Origin: Candidatus Woesebacteria bacterium
GTDB lineage: Bacteria > Patescibacteriota > Microgenomatia > UBA8517
Direction of reading: 5' to 3'
Length of the DNA stretch: 64,000 nt
Assembly (NCBI GenBank): GCA_016432525.1
Contig: CP066693.1
Location: forward strand, 547,650-611,649
Part shown: positions 46,039 to 63,989 of the stretch, piece by piece
How positions within the stretch are numbered: position 1 is the first letter of the stretch
How the letters are laid out: each line of letters starts with the position of its first letter
Translations under genes and position numbers: made by a program
The notes under the pieces: generated by a model
The model's database searches: none
The model's input: only the letters and a program-made list of their open reading frames with translations
What the model was told of the DNA's origin: nothing

Positions 46039-47739
46039 GTGAAAAAAAGATTAACTGCTCTTTCATTAATCTATGTAGTAAGTATTCTTTTTATTTCAGT
46101 CCGTCTCTTTTTTTGGCAAATTGTAAAAGGATCCTCCCTTTCCCAAATTGCAACATCTCAATATCAAAGTCAGTCTCAAACTAAAGCTTTTCGTGGGGCA
46201 ATTCTTGACAGTGGTGGTTCATATCTTGTTGCAAGTGTCACCTCCTGGAGATTATTTGCAAATCCTCCAAAAATTAAGGATAACAAAAAAGTTATAGCAA
46301 ATACTCTTGCCCCACTTCTAGTTGAGGACCCAAAAGATATAAAAGATGAAGTTTCTCTTATAGAGAATGATCTCAATAGTAACTCTCCTTATATTCCAAT
46401 AAAAGAAAAAATAAGCGATGATGTAAAGAAAAAAATTGAGAATTTAAGTTTTACAGGATTGGGATTTGAAAGTATTGAAGATCGTCTATATCCAGAAGGC
46501 TCAAGTTCAGCCCAACTTTTAGGTTTTGTTGGCAAAGATAAGGAAGGCGGAGATGTTGGTTACTTTGGCTTAGAAGGTTATTACGACCTTCCTCTTAAAG
46601 CAAAAACAGGCTTTACAATTAGAGATACTGATCCATTTGGCCATCCAATTCTTTCAGGCGATTTAAGCTCGGTTCCTGAACTTGGAGGCGTAGATTTAGT
46701 AACCTCAATAAATAAAGGTATCCAACTTTTGGTTGAGCAAAAACTTTCAAAAGCAATGGAAACCTATGAAGCCAAATTGGGAAATGTCATAATTATGGAT
46801 CCTAAGGATGGCAAAATTCTAGCAATGGCTTCCTATCCCTCTTTCGACCCAAGAAAATACTATGATTATAGTAACGAACTTTTTAAAAATCCTAATATTT
46901 CAGATAGTTTCGAGCCAGGCTCCATTTTCAAGCCTCTGGTAATGGCAGCTGGCTTTGACTCTAAGGTTATTAATAAAAACACTTTCTGTGACATTTGTGA
47001 TAAACCTTACAAAGTTGATAAGTATCAGATAGAAACTTGGAACCAACAATACTTTCCCAATTCTTCCATGACAGATATTATTGTTCATTCGGATAATGTT
47101 GGAATGACTTTTGTGGGTCTAAAGCTTGGAGGTAAGCGCTTAATAGATTATATAGATAAATTTGGGATCGGTCACTTAACTGGAATTGATTTACAAGGTG
47201 AGGATACTCCTCCTTCAAGAAAAAAAGATGAATGGAACATAGTCGATGAGGTCACCGCGACTTTTGGACAAGGAGTTGCAGTAACTCCTATCCAAATGAT
47301 AAGGAGTCTATCTACAATTGCCAATGGTGGCTTCTTAGTAAGACCTCATGTAGTCCAAAGTATTAAAAAAGATGATTTTACAAAAAACGTAGAATTAGAT
47401 GCTCCAACTAGAGTAATAACCAAAGATGCAGCAAACACAGTAAAAGATATGATGATTAAAGCAGTTAAAGACGGTGAAGCAAAATGGGCAATGCCAAAAG
47501 GCTTTTTGATAGCCGGAAAAACAGGAACAGCTCAAATTCCAGTTGCCGGACATTACGACTCAAAAAAAACAATCGCAAGCTTTGTAGGTTTTGCTCCAGC
47601 CAATGATCCAAAATTTATCATGTTAGTTTCGTTAACTGAACCTCAAAGCTCTCAGTGGGGAGCAGAAACAGCAGCTCCCTTGTGGGCAGATATTGCTCGC
47701 GATTTATTCCCAATGCTTGGTATCCATCCAGAAAATTGA
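46039..47739 (+). CDS. ftsI: Class B penicillin-binding protein / peptidoglycan D,D-transpeptidase FtsI
   Basis: N-terminal TM anchor; SxxK (SIFKP), SxN (HSDN) and KTG (KTGTA) active-site motifs in the correct order. Confidence 0.85.
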   Translation: MKKRLTALSLIYVVSILFISVRLFFWQIVKGSSLSQIATSQYQSQSQTKAFRGAILDSGGSYLVASVTSWRLFANPPKIKDNKKVIANTLAPLLVEDPKDIKDEVSLIENDLNSNSPYIPIKEKISDDVKKKIENLSFTGLGFESIEDRLYPEGSSSAQLLGFVGKDKEGGDVGYFGLEGYYDLPLKAKTGFTIRDTDPFGHPILSGDLSSVPELGGVDLVTSINKGIQLLVEQKLSKAMETYEAKLGNVIIMDPKDGKILAMASYPSFDPRKYYDYSNELFKNPNISDSFEPGSIFKPLVMAAGFDSKVINKNTFCDICDKPYKVDKYQIETWNQQYFPNSSMTDIIVHSDNVGMTFVGLKLGGKRLIDYIDKFGIGHLTGIDLQGEDTPPSRKKDEWNIVDEVTATFGQGVAVTPIQMIRSLSTIANGGFLVRPHVVQSIKKDDFTKNVELDAPTRVITKDAANTVKDMMIKAVKDGEAKWAMPKGFLIAGKTGTAQIPVAGHYDSKKTIASFVGFAPANDPKFIMLVSLTEPQSSQWGAETAAPLWADIARDLFPMLGIHPEN

Positions 47740-48643
47740 CTGATTCTGATATAATTATATACGTTGTGGAAAGTTAATCATGGAAAACATAGAAAAAAAA
47801 GTAGTCTTAGTCATATATAGATGCGAATTAGGAAAAACTGAATTTCAAAAACAATTTAGTTTTTAAATGACGATACTCCACCAGAAGCACTACCTTGTAT
47901 ATGTGAATCAAAAAATCAAGAACATTCTGCTGTTATTTCTAAAATAGAAGTCGTAGAGCTATCTCAACCTCGAAGTCTTGAAAGAAAACTTTAAAAATAA
48001 TTAATGTTTAAAGATAGAAGACCAGGGATAGGTGAAGGAGAAGCAAACCAATATATTTATGCCTATGTCGATCAAAAAAAAGCAGGGTTCGATACGGCAG
48101 CAGTTTTAAAAGAATTGCAAACTTTTTACCCTTCAGACCTAAATATTAACAACTCGCAAAGATTCCCAACTATAATTTTGGGAATCGGATGTGTTTACCA
48201 TCTTCGGCTGCAATGTGTATTAACTTAATTAAAGGTCGACGGATAATAAGCGATTCAAACGAAACTTCTATTAAAGTAAGCGATATTTATAGACTACTGC
48301 TTCCACTTCACGGTAAAAACCTAGATTCACTATTCCCTTCCTTCCAGTGAAAGACAAGCTGATGACGAGAAAGTGCATTGTCAAAGGGCGCCGATTATCT
48401 CAATGAGGTCCGAACCAAGCAGGGGGACTGCAATCTGAAGAAGCTTGCTTGGGCGATGATGTGATTCATCAATTGACATCGGTTATAAGGTCATGATAGA
48501 GGAAGTAGGGGAGGGGATGCAACCGTGTGATATTGGGCCAAGAGACCTTCGTAGCCGAAACTTCCTAGAACTGTACAAGACTATACAAATGAGCAGGGCA
48601 TTGGCTCAGAGAGATCTATACTGATCACGCATGACAGATTGAC

Positions 48644-49024
48644 TTGGCAGAGGGGATCATGGCTGTACCACTTGTCCTCATCGTTGACGATGATCCTGCG
48701 CAGTTGATGTTGTATAGCCTGGTACTGCGACCGTTACCGTGCTACATTGCAACGGCACCGAGCGGCGAAGCAGCGCTCAAGCTGCTTGAGAATGCGCACC
48801 CGGCACTCCTGATAGTCGATATTCTCTTGCCCGGAATGAGTGGGGCAGATGTGATACGTACCATTAGGAAGGATGCGCAGTTTGCGCCAATGAAAATTGT
48901 TGCCCTAACTGTTGTTCCACACATGCTTGCCCAGGAGGATACGGCTCTTTGCAATGTCGTGCTTGCCAAACCAATCGGTGTGGCACAACTCAAACAAGTG
49001 ATTCGAGACTTGTTGGGTGTATAG
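48644..49024 (+). CDS. Stand-alone response regulator receiver (REC, CheY-like) domain protein
   Basis: LVLIVDDDPAQL (acidic pocket); phospho-acceptor Asp in LLIVDILLPGMSG; the downstream conserved residues of REC domains are present; 126 aa with no output domain. Confidence 0.75.
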   Translation: MAEGIMAVPLVLIVDDDPAQLMLYSLVLRPLPCYIATAPSGEAALKLLENAHPALLIVDILLPGMSGADVIRTIRKDAQFAPMKIVALTVVPHMLAQEDTALCNVVLAKPIGVAQLKQVIRDLLGV

Positions 49025-49426
49025 GTGGCTGATCCTCCCGTATTCCGATTCCAGTCGGCGGGACAAGGTAATTCTCGTTGCCCCAACAGTACAGCGAGAA
49101 TCTGTTCTTTGTCGCGCAAAGTCGCGGAATGTTGGAAAAGTCAGGCGAAAGGTGAGCCACGATCAAAGCGTCTAAAGCGTATGAAGTTAAATGTCGAGAA
49201 AACCAGTGTGAGTGAGAGTTTGGACCTGCAATCCATCCTTAAGTGTCCAGTATGCGGGTTTTCCAAAGAGGAAATCATGCCGACGGATAGTTGCCAATTC
49301 TTCTATACTTGCACAAATTGTCACACACGACTACGGCCTAAGCCTGGCGATTGCTGCGTGTTTTGCTCGTATGGGAGCAAAAAATGTCCGTCCAAACAGA
49401 GGGAGGAGTCCGATCAATTGCCGTAG
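49025..49426 (+). CDS. Cys-rich small protein with GDCCVxC-like metal-binding motif
   Basis: CPVCG...CTNCH...GDCCVFCSYG...C cluster; translational junction ATG right after the REC stop; the alternative start at the Met at 49181 gives about an 81-aa product. Overlaps a convergent small ORF at its 3' end. Confidence 0.4.
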   Translation: MADPPVFRFQSAGQGNSRCPNSTARICSLSRKVAECWKSQAKGEPRSKRLKRMKLNVEKTSVSESLDLQSILKCPVCGFSKEEIMPTDSCQFFYTCTNCHTRLRPKPGDCCVFCSYGSKKCPSKQREESDQLP

Positions 49427-49523
49427 TCTGCGCCGTTTCCATCAAGCTACAGGAGGAAAGGGGAATAAGGGCGGTAACGAAAACCAGTACAATGAGACGC
49501 ACAATAATACTTTTTTGCGACAT
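49338..49523 (-). CDS. Possible small lipoprotein (61 aa)
   Basis: MSQKSIIVRLIVLVFVTALIPLSSC has a signal peptide with a lipobox-like LSSC. Overlaps the 3' end of the plus-strand Cys-rich ORF, so one of the two may be spurious. Confidence 0.25.
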   Translation of the reverse strand: MSQKSIIVRLIVLVFVTALIPLSSCSLMETAQTTAIDRTPPSVWTDIFCSHTSKTRSNRQA

Positions 49524-49826
49524 GTTTTAGGCGCAGGGATTGGATGGAAGGGGGTATAACAAGGATAGGACTTACGCAGTTGGAGGGGTTCTTGGCGCTA
49601 CGAGCCGATTCCGCAGAAATGCCCAAACCGGCGTTTTGCTGCACAGGAAGCCTAACTTGGGGTTCAACTGCGTAACTCCTACCCCTACAGAGTCACTTAG
49701 GGAGAGCTAGAATGGGCAGCAAACTCAAGAAAAAAGCTCTGGCTTATAGTCTGAGCAAAGGGGGTGACGACACTATTGGGGCTATGGGGTGGAACACAGG
49801 GGTGATCGTTAACCCTTTCGATGATT

Positions 49827-50639
49827 TTATGTCGAATCCCGAAGTATGTCGATCACCGTAGTGATCAATCGGTCGTTTTGAAGTGCAAAAGTATGAACGG
49901 ACTGCCTATTGGTGTCGATTCCTTGGATTATGATATGAGGTTGTGTTGCACACAGAACTCTGCCTTCATCTAGACCAACTATCTCATCGCCCTCTGTAAC
50001 TATGTTTATAATTCGCTGTACTGGGGAATTCCCCTCAGCGCAGCCTTCGATAATCCTCATCAAACCATTCGTCCGAAGTTCTTGGAACACTAGCGGAGGC
50101 TGCTGCGAACCAAGAAACGGTCTATTCTTTTCAAGAAAATTTGCCTTGTAGGCTTCCCAGTATTTGTCTGAGCCTCGCAATGGTGAGTTTATGATGGTTA
50201 TAGACCGCACCCGCTTCACAGTATCTGATTTTGCGCGAGATCGAGTGATAGCCCAATATAATGCGATAGTTCCCATTAATGAATGGCATACCATATCTAC
50301 AACAGACCGTCTATAAAACTTAAGAAAATCATCAAACTGATATGCAAAATCAGAAATTGACTGAATAACCGTATCCTTTTTGGAATAAGAGAATCCTGGA
50401 TCACGGTATCCTAACCACTGTATAGATACATACGTATCTTTTACTTTGATCTGCTGATGAATGGCCTGAGCTAAAAGATCGAATGATTTTCTGCCTTCGT
50501 ACCAGTTTTGCAGGGAACCTGGCCCCAAAAGAATGAGCCGATCCTGCTGTGAATGCACCTCAGCTTCATTTTTGTTACGAGCAGAGATGCTTACAGCCCG
50601 CATGAACTTTCCAATTTTCTCTTCTTCACTGTCCGGCAT
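49827..50639 (-). CDS. Hypothetical protein (270 aa), weak alpha/beta-hydrolase-like features
   Basis: G+C-rich ORF with good coding look; CHSLMG resembles but does not match a GxSxG nucleophile elbow; no firm family assignment. Confidence 0.3.
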   Translation of the reverse strand: MPDSEEEKIGKFMRAVSISARNKNEAEVHSQQDRLILLGPGSLQNWYEGRKSFDLLAQAIHQQIKVKDTYVSIQWLGYRDPGFSYSKKDTVIQSISDFAYQFDDFLKFYRRSVVDMVCHSLMGTIALYWAITRSRAKSDTVKRVRSITIINSPLRGSDKYWEAYKANFLEKNRPFLGSQQPPLVFQELRTNGLMRIIEGCAEGNSPVQRIINIVTEGDEIVGLDEGRVLCATQPHIIIQGIDTNRQSVHTFALQNDRLITTVIDILRDST

Positions 50640-50674
50640 AAAGATCCTGCTAAAGTAGCGATGAAATAAATAAA

Positions 50675-50704
50675 GGCTTGCTCATCTTATCCGTTGAGCA
50701 AGTC
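50675..50704 (-). terminator. Candidate intrinsic terminator for the minus-strand 183-aa gene
   Basis: GGCTTGCTCA - 10-nt loop - TGAGCAAGTC hairpin immediately downstream (minus-strand sense) of the stop at 50763, followed by a T-rich run on the minus strand. Confidence 0.35.
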
Positions 50705-50762
50705 TTATAGAATACACTATATGTAGTTAGTGGTCGAATTATATGGAAGTCAAACTGCCGCT

Positions 50763-51314
50763 TCAATCAATATGTTCAATTCGCCCAGAAGAAAATACCC
50801 TTATGTCGTGTGACTCAACAGTTCCACGCAAGACAGTGCCATTATCTGCTATTGGCGGAGAAAAACAAGCCCATTGCGCATTGAGATCAATTTGAATCTT
50901 AGAAATCAGAGAATGATATGGTTTGCACTGACGGTCAAACTTCGCGTGTCGAACATCCAACTTGAAATGCGGCGCTCTGCTGAAAAGGTCGCGTGTAACT
51001 GTCAAAATAACCGTGTCATCCTTGGTATGGAGCAGACTGTCTTCGACGAGAGAGATTTCATAAACAGCAACTTCTTGATCTGAATCAGGATCATCGCTCT
51101 TCTGTTGGACTTCGACAGGATTTCCAAAAACATGAGCAAGTTCACTTATCCAATCAACGTTGCTGTCCGTATAATTGATTTCCCGAAGATCGGCTGCTAC
51201 GGACACTTTTCGATTTCGTTCAAAAGAATGATGAGGTTGCGTGCTCTCTGAGCGATTAATAATCGAGGCAACAAATCCTCTCAATCGACTCTTTTCTCTT
51301 TCTTTAGAAGCCAT
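50763..51314 (-). CDS. Hypothetical protein (183 aa)
   Basis: G+C-rich ORF, acidic central region, no recognisable motif. Confidence 0.35.
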   Translation of the reverse strand: MASKEREKSRLRGFVASIINRSESTQPHHSFERNRKVSVAADLREINYTDSNVDWISELAHVFGNPVEVQQKSDDPDSDQEVAVYEISLVEDSLLHTKDDTVILTVTRDLFSRAPHFKLDVRHAKFDRQCKPYHSLISKIQIDLNAQWACFSPPIADNGTVLRGTVESHDIRVFSSGRIEHID

Positions 51315-51463
51315 GATTGCTCCCTACATGTGAAGGATGATGAGTATTCCGATCGCCCGACGCGCGAATCGGCAATAGCTCATCCTCCAATAAGATGACA
51401 CAATAAGATAACATATAATGACATTATCATGTTTTTGTGCTATTATGTCAACCCGTTAAAGTG

Positions 51464-51483
51464 TTAACATGCTGTCATGTTAA
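51464..51483. promoter_or_regulatory. Perfect palindrome TTAACATG-N4-CATGTTAA (candidate operator) in divergent promoter region
   Basis: 8-bp inverted arms with a 4-bp spacer overlapping the first ATG of the wHTH ORF; related half-sites (GTTAACA, ACATTATCATG) occur 30-70 bp upstream. Confidence 0.35.
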
Positions 51484-51737
51484 GATTCAGGGGGAATGGT
51501 CTGATCATGAACGAGGGCCTCTCAATTTATGCTAATAAGATCTTGGATTTACTGCGCCAGCGGGGCGAATGGATGAAAAGGAGTGAAATTGCAAAAGGGT
51601 TAGGCCGCAAACGCTTGACTGGCAGCCACCTTACTGCACTGGCAATACTTGAGGAGCGCAAACTCATCGAGGTTGAAAAGCGGCCAGACAATCGCCCAAT
51701 CGGACTTATATTCTTTTACAGAGCAATCAACGATTGA
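51477..51737 (+). CDS. Small winged-helix DNA-binding protein (putative transcriptional regulator)
   Basis: ILDLLRQRGEWMKRSEIAKGLGRKRLTGSHLTALAILEERKLIEV is a wHTH-like pattern; the true start is possibly the Met at 51507 (MNEGLSIY). Confidence 0.4.
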   Translation: MLRFRGNGLIMNEGLSIYANKILDLLRQRGEWMKRSEIAKGLGRKRLTGSHLTALAILEERKLIEVEKRPDNRPIGLIFFYRAIND

Positions 51738-52012
51738 GTTTCTGCTTCCTGGGTTTGGGTCGTCTTGGGCCGTCCCTCACAACACGGACACTCGAAGCGC
51801 TTGGGGCGATAGCGGATCACAACTTCCCAGCCAAAACTGGGCAGATGTCTCACCTGTACCCACTCACTGTACCCGGCAAAGCGCCGTATCTCCCGTCCAC
51901 AACGTTTACAGTGTGTGCTTTCCACACTGATGCTCAGTTGCTTGGCTCCCTGTACCTCGACCTTCACCACCTCTACATCAGGTAGATCCAATGGAATGGT
52001 GAGTTCGGCCAC
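51716..52012 (-). pseudogene. ISL3-family transposase, N-terminal zinc-finger fragment only (truncated)
   Basis: LDLPDVEVVKVEVQGAKQLSISVESTHCKRCGREIRRFAGYSEWVQVRHLPSFGWEVVIRYRPKRFECPCCEGRP matches the ISL3 N-terminus (C-x2-C ... RFxC-x2-C zf-ISL3). Stops after 98 aa, so no catalytic DDE region. Confidence 0.6.
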
Positions 52013-52155
52013 CCTACTCTCTCACTTCGTTTGCTCCCTACCCCTGCCTAATACTACTCCCACAGGTACGCCCGACTCCAGAATCTCCCAATGAACCGAA
52101 TTTCCTCGGTCATTTGCCGAACATCTTCTGCATCTAACCTGTTTTTCGCTATGAT

Positions 52156-52299
52156 TGTCAGTTTTAACGAAAAATGAAAGGATTTTTTACAACAAAATTG
52201 AAATCATAAATTAAACTTATCCCTTATTATTGGGATAAATAGTAAATAGACATTTCATTTTTCACATAAATTCTGTTACAAATTTCGTTAAAACTGACA
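52156..52299. repeat. Perfect 17-bp inverted repeat pair (TGTCAGTTTTAACGAAA / TTTCGTTAAAACTGACA) flanking a 110-bp A+T-rich spacer; MITE-like
   Basis: Copy 1 at 52156-52172, reverse-complement copy 2 at 52283-52299; the second arm overlaps the 3' end of the toxin ORF. Confidence 0.5.
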
Positions 52300-52633
52300 G
52301 CTTGTGATCATTTCTGGATTTTTTTACTATATGTAAATAGTGGATTGTACGATAATTGGTGATGAAGAAGATTCTGATCCAGTGTTTTCGTTTGGGGAGT
52401 CTTAGTTCCCGCAGTTTACCATCAATCTGTCCTGTATGTAGACTGCCCAGTAAATTTCCCTCTTGCTTGTGTCGTCTGATAAGTTGTTCTACAGCGCTTC
52501 GCTCTAAATTTGGCAACCTCTCGATATATTCTTGAACTGGTGACCGGCCTTGTTTCGTTTTGTAGAACTCGACTGCAAATCGCGGTTTCTCCAACCTGGC
52601 CTCCTTCTCGTTACGCACCGGATAGTGAGCCAA
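52262..52633 (-). CDS. Type II toxin, RelE/ParE superfamily, Gp49/HigB-like (DUF891-type)
   Basis: VEFYKTKQGRSPVQEYIERL...GKLRELRL...RIFF...IHYLHIVKKSRNDH follows the Gp49-like toxin consensus (xEFy...G..pv..f...l.....LRelR....RifY......i.LLH.F.KKt.k.p). No adjacent HTH antitoxin ORF is evident. Confidence 0.55.
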   Translation of the reverse strand: MAHYPVRNEKEARLEKPRFAVEFYKTKQGRSPVQEYIERLPNLERSAVEQLIRRHKQEGNLLGSLHTGQIDGKLRELRLPKRKHWIRIFFITNYRTIHYLHIVKKSRNDHKLSVLTKFVTEFM

Positions 52634-52703
52634 CAGGCAGTCCTAATTTTCAATTTTTGAAATCAAAAAAGGACTCGAATCCTTTTTAACTACCGATCAC
52701 AGA

Positions 52704-53093
52704 ATGAAAATAATAAAACATAAATCAGGATGTATAATAATCGATGATACTTACAACAATAATCCTCAGGCAGCACTTAAAGCTTTAAAGACATTGGAAT
52801 CAGTGTCTAGTGGTAAAAAAATTGGAATAGTTTTTGGTGACATGCTTGAATTAGGCAAAAATGAGGCTAAATTTCACAAGAAAATAGCTCGAAAAATACA
52901 AAAATTAAAACCAAAATTTATAGTTTTAGTAGGTAACGCAACAAAAGGTTTGATCAAAGAATCTTTCTGGTTTGAAAAAAACCAAACTAAAGAAATAGTA
53001 ATGACTCTCAAAAAACTAATAAAAAAAGACTTCGTGGTTCTTTTTAAAGGTTCTCGATCAATCGGTCTGGATGATATAATATCTAAGTTATGA
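52704..53093 (+). pseudogene. murF: murF remnant: C-terminal domain only of UDP-MurNAc-tripeptide--D-Ala-D-Ala ligase
   Basis: IIDDTYNNNPQAALKALKTLESV...KIGIVFGDMLELGKNEAKFHKKIA...KGSRSIGLDDII is the Mur ligase C-terminal domain. The reading frame is closed upstream, so only about 129 of the expected 430-460 aa are present. Confidence 0.6.
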
Positions 53094-54142
53094 ATGTCCC
53101 AAACATTCTCCCTTTGGTTTTAGGGTTAATTCTGTTCTCGTTCTTTGTTTCGAGCCTTCTAGTTGTTCCATTTATTAACCTTCTTTACAAAATCAAGCTT
53201 ACCCGTCGTCGAGAAGCAATGGGTAAGAAAAAAACTCTTTTTGAAAAACTTCATGATATCAAATCAGGTACACCAATTGGAGGTGGGGTTTTGATAATTG
53301 TCATAGTTGTTACCCTTTTTGCAGTCCTTTTTCCAATCCTTTTAAATTTTGGAGTTTTTATTCATTCATCTTTTAATCTCTTTAAAGAACTTCTAGTCAT
53401 ATTTTTTACATTCATTTCGTTTGGTCTTTTAGGACTTCTCGATGACTTTGTAAAAACATTTGGAAAACCCAAAACAGGAAACGTAGGTGCTGTTTTTGGT
53501 CTAACTAAAAAACAAAAATTTTCAATTCAATGGGTTCTTGCCTTAATTACAGCCTTTATCCTTTATCAATTTTTGGGAATCCATATCCTTCATCTTCCAC
53601 TTCTCAACTCAGTTATAGATCTCGGAATTTTTTATGTTCCTTTTGCAGCAACAGTCATAGTCTTCTTTGCAAATGCCTTTAATTTCACAGACGGGCTTGA
53701 TGGCTTAGCATCTGGCCTACTTGTAATTTATTTAATTAGCTATATCTTTATAAGTGCAGGTAACCTTGATACAACTCTTTTTATGTTCATTTCAATTTGG
53801 CTCGGCGCAATAATTGCCTTCCTTTACTTTAATGTTTATCCTGCTCGTGTTTTTCTGGGGGATGCAGGAGCTCTTTCTTTTGGTTCAACCATAGCACTCA
53901 TTGGTTTATTAACAGGAAATGTCGCAACTCTTTTTGTGATTGGTGGGATTTTTGTAATTGAAGCAGCCTCAAGTGCAATTCAAATCATCTCAATCAAATT
54001 CTTCAACAAAAGGGTTTTTCCTCTTGCTCCAATTCATCACAGCTTCTTGGCAATTGGCTGGGAAGAACCAAAAATTGTGATGAGAGCCTGGATTGCAGGT
54101 ATAATTTTGGCAATTTTTGGGCTTTGGCTTGCCGCAATTTAA
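53090..54142 (+). CDS. mraY: Phospho-N-acetylmuramoyl-pentapeptide transferase MraY
   Basis: About 10 TM helices; NAFNFTDGLDGLASG and VFLGDAGALSFGSTIA motifs. Confidence 0.85.
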   Translation: MNVPNILPLVLGLILFSFFVSSLLVVPFINLLYKIKLTRRREAMGKKKTLFEKLHDIKSGTPIGGGVLIIVIVVTLFAVLFPILLNFGVFIHSSFNLFKELLVIFFTFISFGLLGLLDDFVKTFGKPKTGNVGAVFGLTKKQKFSIQWVLALITAFILYQFLGIHILHLPLLNSVIDLGIFYVPFAATVIVFFANAFNFTDGLDGLASGLLVIYLISYIFISAGNLDTTLFMFISIWLGAIIAFLYFNVYPARVFLGDAGALSFGSTIALIGLLTGNVATLFVIGGIFVIEAASSAIQIISIKFFNKRVFPLAPIHHSFLAIGWEEPKIVMRAWIAGIILAIFGLWLAAI

Positions 54143-55214
54143 AATGCAAAAAAAACCAGTTGATCGCCTTCTTTTAATTCTCACATTTCTCCTTACACTA
54201 ATAGGTATAATTTTTGTAGCCGATGTTTCAGCTCCACAAGCAAAAGCTTTCTTTTCCGACAGCTACTTTTTTGTAAAACAACAATTGATTTGGGGAGTTT
54301 TAGGAATAATTGCGCTAATAGTTGCAAGTAAAATTCACTATATTTTTTGGAAAAAAATTTCATACTATTTATTTTTCGCAAATATCTTTTTACTAATCTT
54401 GGTTTTGATTCCGCATTTTGGTAATAAGCTTCTTGGAGCTAGGCGGTGGATTAGTTTTGGGCCTATTACAATTCAACCATCAGAGTTGGTAAAACTAACT
54501 CTTGCTCTTTACATTGCAAATCTTGCTGATAGGAAAAAAGAAGTTCTTTATTATTTAATTCCAGTCGCACTCGTTGCAGGGCTCATTATGCTTGAGCCAG
54601 ATCTAGGAACAACAATTATTGTTGTTGCAATTGGTCTAACTCAAATATTTCTTGCAGGTATTCCTCTTGTTTATTTAGCATCAATTTTAGGTACAGGGGG
54701 AATTGTCGGATTCATATTAATAGTTTTTTCAAATTATAGAAAAACAAGATTTATGCATTTCTTAAGCGGTCTGAAAGATCCATTGGATAGCTCCTATCAT
54801 GTAAAACAAATTCTTTTCGCTTTAGGATCAGGTGGTCTTTTCGGAGTAGGTATTGGCCAATCAAAACAAAAATATCTTTTTTTGCCTGAGGCGGCAACAG
54901 ATTCTGTTTTTGCAATAATTGCAGAAGAAATAGGATTTTTTGGAAGTCTTGCAATTATTATTCTTTTACTTTTGATAGTTTTAAGAATTTTTAAGATTGC
55001 CAAAAGCGCACCTGACACTTTTTCCAACATCTTGGTTAGTGGAATAGGTATCTGGCTTGGAATTCAAATCCTAATCAATCTTGGCTCAATTGTAGCCCTT
55101 ATTCCCTTAACTGGCGTACCACTACCGTTCTTTTCATATGGAGGCTCAAGCTTGACAATGTTGCTTTTAGGTATTGGAATAGTATTAAACATAAGTAAAT
55201 ATGCAAAAAAATAA
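54117..55214 (+). CDS. ftsW: SEDS-family peptidoglycan glycosyltransferase FtsW
   Basis: RWISFGPITIQPSELVKLTLALYIAN and the C-terminal PLTGVPLPFFSYGGSS motifs of the FtsW/RodA family; position between mraY and murG. Confidence 0.8.
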   Translation: MGFGLPQFKMQKKPVDRLLLILTFLLTLIGIIFVADVSAPQAKAFFSDSYFFVKQQLIWGVLGIIALIVASKIHYIFWKKISYYLFFANIFLLILVLIPHFGNKLLGARRWISFGPITIQPSELVKLTLALYIANLADRKKEVLYYLIPVALVAGLIMLEPDLGTTIIVVAIGLTQIFLAGIPLVYLASILGTGGIVGFILIVFSNYRKTRFMHFLSGLKDPLDSSYHVKQILFALGSGGLFGVGIGQSKQKYLFLPEAATDSVFAIIAEEIGFFGSLAIIILLLLIVLRIFKIAKSAPDTFSNILVSGIGIWLGIQILINLGSIVALIPLTGVPLPFFSYGGSSLTMLLLGIGIVLNISKYAKK

Positions 55215-60072: not shown

Positions 60073-62982
60073 ATGGCCAAAAAACAATACTTTGACTCAG
60101 TTGATTTAAAAATAAATTTCCCCGAAGAAGAGAAAAAATTGCTTAAATTCTGGTACGAAAACGATGTTGTCGCTAAATATTTAAATAAAAATAAAACTTC
60201 TAAAAAATACTTCTCTTTTATGGATGGACCAATTACAGCAAATAACCCAATGGGAGTTCACCATGCTTGGGGTCGAACATATAAAGATCTTTGGCAGAGA
60301 TTCAATAATATGAGAGGATTTCGCGAACGTTTTCAAAATGGCTTTGACTGTCAAGGTTTGTGGGTAGAAGTGGAAGTAGAAAAAGAATTGGGACTACGCA
60401 ATAAAAAAGATATTGAGGCCTTAGTTCCCGGTAACAAAAAGGAAAGCATTGCCAAATTTGTAAATCTTTGTAAAGAAAGAGTAGAAAGGTTCAGTAATAT
60501 TCAAACCCAACAATCTAAACGCCTTGGTAATTTTATGGATTGGGACAATTCATATTTCACAATGTCTGATGAAAATAATTACACCATCTGGCATTTTCTA
60601 AAAGTCTGCCACGAAAAAGGTTGGATTTATAAAGGTACTGATTCAGTTCCATGGTGCCCCAGATGCGAAACTGCAATTTCTCAGCACGAGATGCTAACTG
60701 AGGATTATAAGGAAATTACACATAAATCTGTATATTTAGAATTTCCAATAGTAGATCGCAGTCGGGAATATCTTTTGGTCTGGACTACAACCCCATGGAC
60801 CATTCCAGCAAATATTGCTGTAGCTGTTGATGAAAAGATGGACTATGTTTTAGTGGAAGGAAAAACTGGGGACAAATATTGGATAGTTAAGGAAAGACTA
60901 GATGCAGTTTTTGGTAAAGACTTCAAGAAAAAAATTAAAACCGTCAAAGGCAAAGAACTCGTTGGATTAAAATACACAAGTGCATTCGATGATATTTCGG
61001 CAATAGCCAAAGTAGCAAAAGAAAATGAAGAGTTGTTTCATAAAGTTATAGCCACAGATCCACTAATTTTGCCTATCGCTGGAACCGAAGGTACTGGTCT
61101 CGTTCATACAGCAGTATCTGCGGGAGCAGAAGACTTCAAGCTGGGCAAAAAATATGGTTTACCCATGATACCTGTCATTCAGGATAATGCCGATTACCTT
61201 CCAGGTCTTAATTTTTTAAGTGGCCAAAATGCCAAAAAACATCCAGAAATAATAATAGATTATTTGTTATCAAGAGAGAAAGAAAATTGGATCTTTAAAG
61301 TCGAGAATTATACACACAGATATCCAGCATGTTGGCGTTGTAAAACTGAACTTGTCTGGAAGGTTGCCGATGAGTGGTACATTTCAATGGATAAGGTTGA
61401 CCCAAAAGATTCAAAGAAAAGAACTTTAAGAAAAGAAATGGTCGATGTTGCCAAAAAAATAAATTGGATTCCAAAATTTGGTCTAGACCGCGAACTTGAT
61501 TGGCTCTCTAACATGCACGATTGGCTCATCTCAAAACCAAATCGTTATTGGGGATTGGCTCTTCCAATTTATGAATGTAAAAAATGTGGAAATTTTGAAG
61601 TTATTGGTAGTAAAGAGGAATTAAAGGAAAAAGCAGTTGAAGGTTGGAAAAATTTTGATGGTCATTCTCCACACAAACCATGGATAGATGAAGTCAAAAT
61701 TAAATGTGACAAATGTGATGAAATCGTTGATAGACTTGCTGATGTAGGAAATGTCTGGCTTGATGCAGGTATCGTTCCTTTTTCTACAATTTCAGAAAAT
61801 AACCAAGGTGATCCTTTATACAAAACTGATAAAACCAAATGGCAAAAATGGTTTCCAGTAGATTTCATAACTGAAAGCTTTCCAGGTCAATTCAAAAATT
61901 GGTTTTATTCGCTTATTGCAATGGCAACAGTTTTGGAAAACAAAAATCCATTTAAATCTGTTTTGGGTTTTGCAAGTCTTCTTGCAGAAGACGGCCGTCC
62001 AATGCACAAAAGTTGGGGCAACGCAATAGAATTTAATGAAGGTGCAGACAAAATTGGAGTTGATGTCATGCGCTGGATGTATGTCAGACAAAACCCAACA
62101 GATAATCTTCTCTTTGGCTTTAAAATTGCAGATGAAGTTCGTCGCAAATTCCATTTAAAACTTTGGAATATCTATAACTACTTTGTAACTTATGCAAATT
62201 TAGACAATTGGGACCCGCTGAAGAATAAAGACAATAGTCAAAACATCTTAGATAAATGGATTATAAGCAGATTAAATGAGGTTATTAAAAAAACAACTAA
62301 AGATCTTGAAAAGTACGATGCTTACTCTGCCTCCTCAGAAATAGAAAATTTTGTTGATGATTTATCAAATTGGTATATAAGAAGGTCAAGAGAACGTGAA
62401 GACAGAGAAAATTTTTATAATACTACTTATCAAGTTTTAGTCACTTTATCAAAACTTTTAGCTCCCTTTACACCATTTGTTGCAGATATTATTTACAAAA
62501 ATTTAACAAAAAAAGAGTCAGTTCACTTAAGTGACTGGCCAAAAGCTAAACTCGAAAGTAAAGAAATAATTGATCAAATGACATTGGTGAGAGCTGTTAC
62601 AGAAAAAGCTCATTCGCTTAGAAAAGAAAAATCCATTCCTCTTCGTCAACCTTTGTTATCTTTAAAAACTAGTTATGAATTCACCCTCGATCTTAAAGAA
62701 ATTTTAAAAGAAGAATTAAACGTTAAAGATATTTTAAAAGGTAAAAAAGCTGCAGAATTAGATACAACTATAACTCCCGAGCTTGAAGAAGAAGCCAAAG
62801 CTCGTGAATTAATCAGAAAAATTCAGGCAAAAAGAAAAGAGATGAATGTAGATCTTACTCAAAAAGTTGAAATTTCAAATGAATGGTTTCCAAAAGACGA
62901 AAAACTTACTCAGAAAATTATTGAAAAAACCTTGGCTACCTCGTTGCAAAAAGGGGAATTTAGCGTTAAGGTAAGTGGATGA
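60073..62982 (+). CDS. ileS: Isoleucyl-tRNA synthetase
   Basis: Class I HIGH motif region (PITANNPMGVHHAWGRTYKD), KMSKS-like PMHKSWGN, zinc-binding Cys clusters, and a 969-aa length typical of type 2 IleS. Confidence 0.9.
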   Translation: MAKKQYFDSVDLKINFPEEEKKLLKFWYENDVVAKYLNKNKTSKKYFSFMDGPITANNPMGVHHAWGRTYKDLWQRFNNMRGFRERFQNGFDCQGLWVEVEVEKELGLRNKKDIEALVPGNKKESIAKFVNLCKERVERFSNIQTQQSKRLGNFMDWDNSYFTMSDENNYTIWHFLKVCHEKGWIYKGTDSVPWCPRCETAISQHEMLTEDYKEITHKSVYLEFPIVDRSREYLLVWTTTPWTIPANIAVAVDEKMDYVLVEGKTGDKYWIVKERLDAVFGKDFKKKIKTVKGKELVGLKYTSAFDDISAIAKVAKENEELFHKVIATDPLILPIAGTEGTGLVHTAVSAGAEDFKLGKKYGLPMIPVIQDNADYLPGLNFLSGQNAKKHPEIIIDYLLSREKENWIFKVENYTHRYPACWRCKTELVWKVADEWYISMDKVDPKDSKKRTLRKEMVDVAKKINWIPKFGLDRELDWLSNMHDWLISKPNRYWGLALPIYECKKCGNFEVIGSKEELKEKAVEGWKNFDGHSPHKPWIDEVKIKCDKCDEIVDRLADVGNVWLDAGIVPFSTISENNQGDPLYKTDKTKWQKWFPVDFITESFPGQFKNWFYSLIAMATVLENKNPFKSVLGFASLLAEDGRPMHKSWGNAIEFNEGADKIGVDVMRWMYVRQNPTDNLLFGFKIADEVRRKFHLKLWNIYNYFVTYANLDNWDPLKNKDNSQNILDKWIISRLNEVIKKTTKDLEKYDAYSASSEIENFVDDLSNWYIRRSREREDRENFYNTTYQVLVTLSKLLAPFTPFVADIIYKNLTKKESVHLSDWPKAKLESKEIIDQMTLVRAVTEKAHSLRKEKSIPLRQPLLSLKTSYEFTLDLKEILKEELNVKDILKGKKAAELDTTITPELEEEAKARELIRKIQAKRKEMNVDLTQKVEISNEWFPKDEKLTQKIIEKTLATSLQKGEFSVKVSG

Positions 62983-63989
62983 GGGTAGCCATATCTGTTT
63001 TGATAATTTTATCGATAATTACTCTTCGAGCAATTTACCCTAGTATTTTTCCTAATTATTTTTTATATATCATAATTTCGATCGTCGCGTTTATTTGCTT
63101 TTCCAGACTTGATTTTGAAATACTTGAAGTTTTTTATAAACATTTCTATGTAATCTCGGTAGTTTTGTTAATTATTACTCTTTTGATAGGACAGGCAACC
63201 CGCGGTGTTGTCCGCTGGATTCCTTTGGGACCCATTAATTTCCAGCCAACAGAAATAGCTCGACCTTTTCTTCTTTTATTTTTTGCTAAATTCTTATCAG
63301 AGCAAAGAATTACAATTAAAAGATTTATTCTTGCCTTAATTTTGTTCGCAATTCCATTTTTACTAATTTGGTTTCAGCCATCTCTTGGTGTTGCTGTGGT
63401 CACAACGATAGGTATAATAGGAATTACTCTAACAACCGGAATAGAAAAAAGAATTATTCTCATATCAATAATTACAGTTGTTGCACTTTTACCAATTATT
63501 TGGCAACTTTTAAGGCCTTACCAAAAAACTAGAATTATTGATTTGTTAAACTCAGGTAAACGAGAAGCAAATTATAATAGTCTGCAATCAATGATTTCAG
63601 TCGGATCAGGTGAAATTAATGGAAGAGGGTTGGGAAAAGGTGCCGAAACTCAGCTTTATTTTTTACCAGAGCGCCATACAGATTTTATATTTGCTTCGAT
63701 TTCGGAAGAGTTAGGGACAGTAGGCTCTATGCTTGTTATTCTAACCTCTTTTTATCTCCTATATCAAATAATTATAATTTCAGAAAGCACAAAAAATATT
63801 GTTGCTCGCACATTTGCCATAGGTATCTTCATGACCTTGTTTATGCAAACTTTTGTTCATATTGGCATGAATATGGGTTTGACTCCTGTAACAGGTCTTC
63901 CTCTTCCTTTAGTCTCGGCAGGGGGCTCGTCATTAGTTGCTACCATGGCTAGTTATGGCATGTTACTTGGAATTAAAAGAAATTCGTAG
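62979..63989 (+). CDS. rodA: SEDS-family peptidoglycan glycosyltransferase RodA/FtsW paralog
   Basis: RWIPLGPINFQPTEIARPFLLLFFAKFLSE and C-terminal PVTGLPLPLVSAGGSS motifs; second SEDS copy in the window. Confidence 0.7.
   Translation: MRVAISVLIILSIITLRAIYPSIFPNYFLYIIISIVAFICFSRLDFEILEVFYKHFYVISVVLLIITLLIGQATRGVVRWIPLGPINFQPTEIARPFLLLFFAKFLSEQRITIKRFILALILFAIPFLLIWFQPSLGVAVVTTIGIIGITLTTGIEKRIILISIITVVALLPIIWQLLRPYQKTRIIDLLNSGKREANYNSLQSMISVGSGEINGRGLGKGAETQLYFLPERHTDFIFASISEELGTVGSMLVILTSFYLLYQIIIISESTKNIVARTFAIGIFMTLFMQTFVHIGMNMGLTPVTGLPLPLVSAGGSSLVATMASYGMLLGIKRNS

Follow-up and report, generated by a model that had tools for sequence, protein, structure and literature searches.

The division and cell wall (dcw) cluster of a Candidatus Woesebacteria bacterium, an ultra-small symbiont from groundwater (assembly GCA_016432525.1), raises the question of how a G+C-rich block of DNA came to lie between ftsI and mraY, at a site where only the 3′ end of murF is left. 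The block was noticed in a 64,000-nt stretch of contig CP066693.1 (positions 547,650–611,649), referred to in the following as the window, and all coordinates below are positions in it. A preliminary description, made from the sequence alone, had proposed either that a foreign element had inserted into an essential gene or that the contig was chimeric. In bacteria of the Candidate Phyla Radiation (CPR), genomes are very small and streamlined, mobile elements are few, and peptidoglycan synthesis is among the pathways that are almost always retained. The analysis described here showed that the block is truly part of the genome. It is probably composite DNA that was acquired horizontally and became fixed in the dcw cluster of this organism, replacing the 5′ two-thirds of murF together with whatever lay between ftsI and murF.

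As a check on its claim of a G+C-rich block in an otherwise A+T-rich window, the preliminary description had suggested sliding-window profiles of G+C and tetranucleotide usage, and both gave a clear step. In 500-nt windows, the G+C content was 0.30–0.40 up to 48.2 kb, 0.41–0.51 at 48.25–52.25 kb and 0.32–0.38 past 52.5 kb. Overall, values of 0.43–0.54 at ≈48.33–52.12 kb contrasted with 0.28–0.36 in the rest of the window, where no 2-kb window exceeded 0.41. The tetranucleotide distance to the remaining window was z = 7.6 for the 2-kb window that starts at 48001 and 6.5 for those at 49001 and 50001, compared to a maximum of 2.6 outside the block. A step was also seen in the G+C content of third codon positions (GC3), which was 0.35–0.57 in the open reading frames (ORFs) of the block and 0.20–0.27 in rsmH, ftsI, the murF remnant, mraY, ftsW and murG. 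The DNA of the block is compositionally foreign. For comparison, we used 80 related dcw loci from metagenomes, with MraY proteins 52–70% identical to the one in the window, and none of them contained any of the genes in the block. Searches of Pfam and NCBIfam bore out the gene list given at that time, namely a lone receiver domain, a GDCCVxC-domain protein, two ORFs without a family (p183 and p270), a winged helix-turn-helix (wHTH) protein with a weak match, a fragment of an ISL3 transposase and a Gp49 toxin, leaving only a putative lipoprotein to be accounted for.

The borders of the block had been placed at 48230 and 52650. The right junction is sharp and lies between the start of the Gp49 gene (52633) and the first codon with homology to MurF (52647); since Gp49 starts at 52633 on the opposite strand, the junction falls within 52634–52646. 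The left edge had been set too far out: the 100-nt G+C profile climbs between 48275 and 48325, and the edge is nearer 48300–48390. Segmentation by third-order Markov log-odds gave a strongly atypical core at 48386–52119, the borders of which are approximate, as the model was trained on 48400–52100. This core, an AT-rich spacer and the Gp49 gene together form a patch of ≈4.3 kb (48330–52646), supported by its composition, by its identity between independent assemblies and by its absence from the related loci. At least three composition classes were found inside the block, and the spacer itself has a G+C content of only 0.21–0.30 at 52120–52300. The patch is a mosaic. Between ftsI and the left edge lies AT-rich DNA of host-like composition (47740–48330, G+C 0.28–0.36), which includes a 74-codon ORF (orf74, 48004–48228) with a GC3 of 0.27 and no match to a protein family. 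No tblastn match to this stretch was found in the 80 related loci, and hidden Markov models (HMMs) of murA and murF gave nothing significant in it.

The genes on either side are native. On the left, ftsI (46039–47739, + strand), encoding a class B penicillin-binding protein, is intact, as had been described: it matched the PBP_dimer and Transpeptidase families (E = 5e-72), has a GC3 of 0.24 and is 43–54% identical to the FtsI proteins of the relatives. On the right, mraY (53090–54142, + strand; Glycos_transf_4) is also intact. Between the patch and mraY, a 3′ remnant of murF occupies 52647–53093 on the + strand and matches positions 291–417 of 418 in TIGR01143, corresponding to the Mur_ligase_C domain only. 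The preliminary description had recognized this remnant as the last 129 amino acids (aa) of MurF, counted from the first ATG at 52704. It is indeed only the 3′ end, but the homology is longer: it runs in frame from 52647, directly past a TAA at 52644–52646, and full-length MurF proteins of the relatives aligned by tblastn to 52650–53090, starting at 52650–52662, upstream of that ATG. The stub corresponds to residues ≈264–418 of database MurF proteins of ≈418 aa, at ≈50% identity, and in an alignment with 29 related MurF proteins it begins at the last helix ahead of the C-terminal domain. Its nearest relative in that alignment is 52% identical, and 6/6 of the invariant residues of the region are retained in the stub. 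Its TGA overlaps the ATG of mraY (ATGA).

What is missing from murF are the N-terminal and central ATP-binding domains, ≈263 codons or ≈0.8 kb. The suggestion that an element had inserted into murF was correct in that the gene is destroyed at this site, but this was not a simple insertion; rather, those codons were deleted and replaced. HMMs built from the relatives' MurA and MurF proteins detected neither murA nor N-terminal murF remnants in 47.7–52.65 kb. MurF combines an N-terminal domain, a central P-loop domain (Mur_ligase_M) and a C-terminal domain in one protein, and no ligase chemistry is possible in a Mur ligase that lacks the P-loop and central domain. Encoding the C-terminal domain alone, the stub cannot work as a ligase.

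The content of the ftsI–mraY interval in the relatives gives an indication of what may have been lost. The usual order is ftsI, murA, three to five more genes of 240–520 aa, murF (357–461 aa) and mraY. It had been expected that murE and murF would lie at this site; in the relatives, the interval holds more than these two, with murA and several mur genes besides murF. We classified the gene beside mraY in the 66 loci that had enough upstream sequence. A full-length MurF-type ligase was found in 37 of them, and one more had another Mur-ligase-like ORF. In six, mraY was preceded by ftsI, either directly (L029, L032, L037 and L066) or with a lone diacylglycerol kinase gene in between (L070 and L078). 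The neighbor was murA in five loci, among them the closest relative (L006; MraY 70% identical), and some other gene in 13, two of which (L060 and L062) had the order ftsI, diacylglycerol kinase, mraY. The remaining four had no + strand ORF of at least 90 aa ending beside mraY. A full-length murF beside mraY was missing in 28/66 loci, ≈40% having lost or rearranged this interval, and across the set of Woesebacteria-like genomes (L006–L085) the interval ranged from a mur block of 4–9 kb down to ftsI abutting mraY. The small ORFs between ftsI and mraY in some relatives were considered as possible murF stubs and rejected, as they are diacylglycerol kinases. Because the interval is labile in this group, its ancestral content in the present genome is uncertain, and the native loss can be quantified only as the 0.8 kb of murF. 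The window also contains two genes of the FtsW/RodA family, one in the dcw cluster (54117–55214) and one directly after ileS (62979–63989); a second FtsW match ≈8 kb downstream in many relatives reflects the same arrangement.

The same region was then recovered from other assemblies by looking up exact protein matches. Two Logan contigs, of 149,672 bp (SRR12113414) and 44,383 bp (SRR12113415), contained the whole block and both junctions. A third run, SRR12113388, yielded a 1,558-bp contig covering window positions 47480–49037, with the end of ftsI, orf74, the receiver gene and the left junction, and a 7,594-bp contig covering 50124–57717 with the right junction. The right junction was also present in a 34,210-bp contig that begins at window position 50103, from a metagenome-assembled genome (MAG) at NCBI (GCA_016178105.1, JACOTY010000018.1). 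Over the shared parts, these five contigs, from three runs and the NCBI MAG, were 100% identical to the window. In addition, a 916,571-bp contig encoded identical FtsI, receiver, p183, murF stub and MraY proteins; it lacked an identical copy of the glycosyltransferase encoded at 1727–2770, showing that it represents a separate assembly or strain and not the source of the window. Exact-match searches with the receiver and p183 proteins gave no contig in which they had a different context. The host MAG is Candidatus Woesebacteria NC_groundwater_56_Pr7_S2p5_36_9 (BioProject PRJNA640378), listed in supplementary file 25 of He et al. 2021, with site Pr7 (Lower Lake, California) and the 2.5-µm size fraction as its origin. 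At NCBI, the stub and the partial p270 are annotated as Candidatus Woesebacteria proteins, under locus tags HYS03_02460 and HYS03_02480. The name of the bin gives a G+C content of 36% and a coverage of 9×. Three of the contigs end inside the block: SRR12113388_218189 at 49037, JACOTY010000018.1 at 50103 and SRR12113388_13241 at 50124.

These data bear directly on the proposal that the contig is chimeric, with reads from a co-occurring organism of ≈48% G+C spliced into a Woesebacteria contig. The strong compositional step would be expected in such a case, and it could be argued that the coverage of the MAG is low and that two of the assemblies break within the block. However, a chimera usually consists of one join between two genomes, whereas here the contig re-enters the same operon, in frame with murF. 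A chimeric junction should appear in one assembly only, and the insert should have a context of its own elsewhere; instead, at the assembly level, both junctions were identical in SRR12113414, SRR12113415 and SRR12113388, the right one was also found in the authors' own MAG, and the receiver and p183 proteins were limited to these Woesebacteria contigs, with no donor contig. We consider an assembly artefact highly improbable.

A different possibility is that two unrelated events took place, in which the mur block was first lost or relocated and murF truncated, and foreign DNA later entered what had become a non-essential gap. The lability of the interval fits this sequence of events, as many relatives, including the closest one, have ftsI abutting mraY or only a diacylglycerol kinase gene or murA in between, and the 590 nt of host-like DNA without a homologue between ftsI and the G+C step would also be consistent with it. 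It is nevertheless improbable, as the break in murF lies within 13 nt of the edge of the foreign DNA and a long gap between truncation and arrival would be hard to reconcile with the undecayed stub. The intact appearance of the stub could also mean that the 129-aa Mur_ligase_C domain was kept as a functional stand-alone protein, for example one that acts together with MraY or with a split ligase: the frame is open, with an ATG at 52704, a stop that overlaps the start of mraY and all of its invariant residues. Apart from lacking the P-loop and central domain, the stub has no obvious ribosome-binding site or Shine–Dalgarno-like sequence ahead of that ATG, and no other such stub was found among the 66 related loci. 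Two apparent stand-alone MurF C-domain proteins of 137–138 aa in the database turned out to be MurF genes cut by contig ends and were discarded. A retained function for the stub is thus very unlikely. Some observations do weigh against the proposed acquisition. In the stub, the undamaged frame with its conserved residues would fit a retained function, too. The contig breaks at 49.0–50.1 kb could reflect heterogeneity in the population, although low coverage (9×) is their likely cause. The three runs presumably come from the same site and project, and while they exclude an assembly artefact, they are compatible with a local variant of one population. Finally, no donor sequence was found: comparison of the DNA and proteins of the block with plasmids gave only generic or GDCCVxC matches and an Acaryochloris ISL3 match at ≈40% identity, and a transfer is suggested by composition and phyletic pattern only.

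The mosaic nature of the patch is also apparent from its genes. The left segment (48.39–49.83 kb; G+C ≈0.47–0.52) encodes an orphan response-regulator receiver domain of 121 aa (48659–49024, + strand; PF00072, Response_reg, E = 3e-17; GC3 0.54), which lacks an output domain and has no kinase close by. Sequence inspection showed its conserved acidic, Thr and Lys residues to be in place, and its best plasmid-borne relatives are <40% identical. It is followed by a Cys-rich GDCCVxC-domain protein of 81 aa, counted from an internal ATG in an ORF open from 49025 (49181–49426, + strand; NF041374, E = 1.9e-28). Homologues of this protein, 52–71% identical, were found at 80 loci in GTDB representative genomes of Bacteroidota, Chloroflexota, Proteobacteria, Acidobacteriota and others, with no synteny or shared neighbors. 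After the GDCCVxC gene come 400 nt of non-coding DNA before p270. This gap contains a 138-nt hairpin (49555–49692, + strand; –52.8 kcal/mol, z = –3.9) that was matched in stability by 0/200 shuffled sequences; it had no Rfam match, and no RNA family was found in 47.6–52.8 kb. On the opposite strand, a 61-codon ORF (49338–49523) with a signal peptide and a lipobox (LSSC) overlaps the 3′ end of the GDCCVxC gene. This is probably the putative lipoprotein of the preliminary description, as no other ORF could be meant, but we found no evidence that it is a gene.

The middle segment (49.83–51.31 kb; G+C 0.43) carries two genes, p183 (50763–51314) and p270 (49827–50639), both on the minus strand. The second of these encodes a predicted α/β-hydrolase of the serine esterase or lipase type, 270 aa long, with the fold and a catalytic triad of Ser120, in an HSxxG motif, Asp218 and His249, which are invariant across its homologues. 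The structure was taken from an alignment-based model, the single-sequence model having a predicted local distance difference test (pLDDT) score of 33. This is a rare protein: no word-level homologue was found among 5.8 billion proteins, and only 11 remote representatives, 29–37% identical, among 1.84 billion cluster representatives. The 183-aa p183 protein has homologues of 21–26% identity that share a conserved DWI..L...G motif. In 3/3 loci that could be read, the p183 homologue lay immediately upstream of the p270 homologue in the same orientation (L173, 9205–10822; L174, 6306–7862; L175, 9348–10897). These loci have a G+C content of 46–53%. The neighbors in L174 were an integrase, TIR-domain proteins and a CopG antitoxin; in L175, a coupling-protein ATPase, a relaxase, an integrase and RHS/Barstar; and in L173, an ImmA-type peptidase and helix-turn-helix genes.

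Judging from the co-orientation of the two genes and their neighbors from mobile elements and conflict systems, p183 and p270 form a conserved cassette carried as mobile-element cargo. Neither protein matched a Pfam, NCBIfam or PHROG family or a PADLOC defence model, and nothing was found in viral contigs for the p270 family or for Gp49. By analogy with its neighbors, we would guess that the cassette has a role in conflict, defence or addiction. With one gene for a catalytic-triad hydrolase, this two-gene module is rare and accompanies integrative and conjugative elements.

The right segment (51.48–52.12 kb; G+C 0.47–0.54) begins with a small winged-helix-like protein of 76–86 aa (51477–51737, + strand), with a weak match to the HTH region of Csa3/CasR (E = 4e-4 to 9e-4); the NCBI annotation has a 76-aa gene at this site. 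Next to it, on the minus strand, is the 5′ fragment of an ISL3-family transposase gene (51716–52012), covering only the zinc ribbon (PF14690, E = 5e-6; NF033550, positions 9–70 of 370). The fragment comprises ≈94 of ≈400 codons, in a 98-codon ORF, and then gives way to unrelated DNA. Its best plasmid matches, at 37–41% identity, were to Acaryochloris elements of the ISAcma10 type, and a peptide-pattern scan found no relatives among GTDB representative genomes. The last gene of the patch encodes a full-length toxin of the Gp49/HigB family (52262–52633, minus strand; PF05973, E = 1e-8; GC3 0.43). Whereas HigB/Gp49 toxins normally have the HigA antitoxin next to them, there was no ORF of at least 25 codons downstream of this gene on its strand, and thus no type II module of toxin and adjacent, co-transcribed antitoxin. 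A 250-nt AT-rich non-coding stretch is found instead, with the AT-rich spacer (52120–52261; G+C 0.21–0.28) at the expected antitoxin site. An inverted repeat of 24 nt (52156–52179 and 52276–52299) has its left arm inside this spacer and brackets the spacer together with the 3′ end of the Gp49 gene. With 21/24 complementary positions and 0 such repeats expected by chance, it occurs once in the window, and it could be a terminator-like structure or the end of a miniature element.

Taken as a whole, the patch resembles a genomic island in composition and content but not in structure. Its coding density is ≈65%, and four of its genes (≈2 kb of coding sequence) run antisense to the operon that extends from rsmH to ftsZ. 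Scans with Pfam, NCBIfam and PHROGs found no intact integrase or transposase, there is no tRNA in the 64 kb, and no pair of direct or inverted repeats brackets the block. A scan for promoters and terminators gave nothing above the shuffled expectation, and phage and defence-system libraries gave no informative matches. Like genomic islands, the patch has a sharp compositional step, unrelated gene content, mobile-element debris and a lineage-specific presence. In contrast to them, it lacks an integrase, a tRNA or tmRNA target and flanking repeats, is only ≈4.3 kb long, and sits inside an otherwise conserved CPR dcw operon, coupled to a partial deletion of murF. It is likewise not an ISL3 element or a composite transposon, which would have a transposase of ≈400 aa, terminal inverted repeats and 8-bp target duplications. 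Elsewhere in the window, positions 1–42000 are mostly occupied by a surface-glycan cluster (GT2, GT4, Wzy_C, Polysacc_synt, PMT_2, radical SAM and a sugar aminotransferase) that includes several very large ORFs without a family (1146, 843, 880 and 625 aa).

Two other systems offer partial parallels. Recently host-restricted symbionts accumulate copies of insertion sequences (ISs) as well as pseudogenes, and IS-associated deletions in such bacteria resemble the present case in having a truncated gene beside IS debris in a symbiont-type genome. However, there is here only a single IS fragment, located inside the patch and not at the murF junction, and with no relatives in the genomes scanned. 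In the Moranella system of mealybugs, murF and other genes encoded by the host complete the peptidoglycan pathway. As in that system, murF is missing from its normal place, while mraY, murG, ftsW and ftsI are kept; unlike in Moranella, the loss is seen at the dcw locus only, and no complementing partner is known.

A plausible history of the patch can be proposed along the following lines. The source material may have consisted of residues of one or several mobile elements. Competence and pilus genes are generally present in CPR bacteria, and imported DNA could have entered the cluster by illegitimate recombination or by recombination associated with the now-truncated IS. The adjacent native genes would have been deleted at the same time or later. 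The patch now appears to be immobile and decaying, with a truncated ISL3 gene, a toxin gene without its antitoxin and ≈35% non-coding DNA. The large remaining contrast in GC3 and the undamaged stub would point to a fairly recent event; alternatively, the 3′ end of murF may have been kept clean as the context for the translation start of mraY. The cell would then have another murF elsewhere or no longer need one.

Since this genotype was assembled in every sample, this episymbiont either has a second murF or can do without the gene. We consider it likely that a second copy is present elsewhere in the genome. The stub had no close paralogue in the database, and when a profile of the 29 relatives' MurF proteins was used, none of the best 120 of 5231 matches lay on the 916,571-bp or the 149,672-bp contig, which is a weak negative. 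Tblastn with the ORFs from the relatives' intervals found no homologues of Mur ligases, Ddl or MurA/B elsewhere in the window, the stub region being the only match, and the Pfam annotation of the 10 kb downstream contained no Mur-ligase families. A more far-reaching combination of ideas is that this lineage, perhaps in common with the relatives that have ftsI directly beside mraY, has given up making UDP-MurNAc-pentapeptide and depends on a host for a late peptidoglycan precursor, and that, separately, p183–p270 is an undescribed conflict or defence cassette of mobile elements. Under such precursor dependence, murF and the other cytoplasmic mur genes would have been lost, MraY, MurG, FtsW and FtsI would have been kept, and the block would be a scar. 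Taken together, these two proposals are unlikely to be correct.

The acquisition of composite DNA at this site belongs to a known kind of event, that of a fixed and decaying patch of transferred DNA accompanied by a deletion, and what sets it apart is its place in the dcw operon of a streamlined CPR genome. It would mean that CPR cells do integrate exogenous DNA at random, even into core operons, and that Woesebacteria have a soft spot in the ftsI–mraY interval. Should there be a second murF, the locus would be just a tidy example of a gene that moved and left its old copy to decay. The finding also offers a specific genome for examining whether an episymbiont can do without the cytoplasmic Mur pathway, and the significance of the finding would rise substantially if a complete genome lacked Mur ligases.

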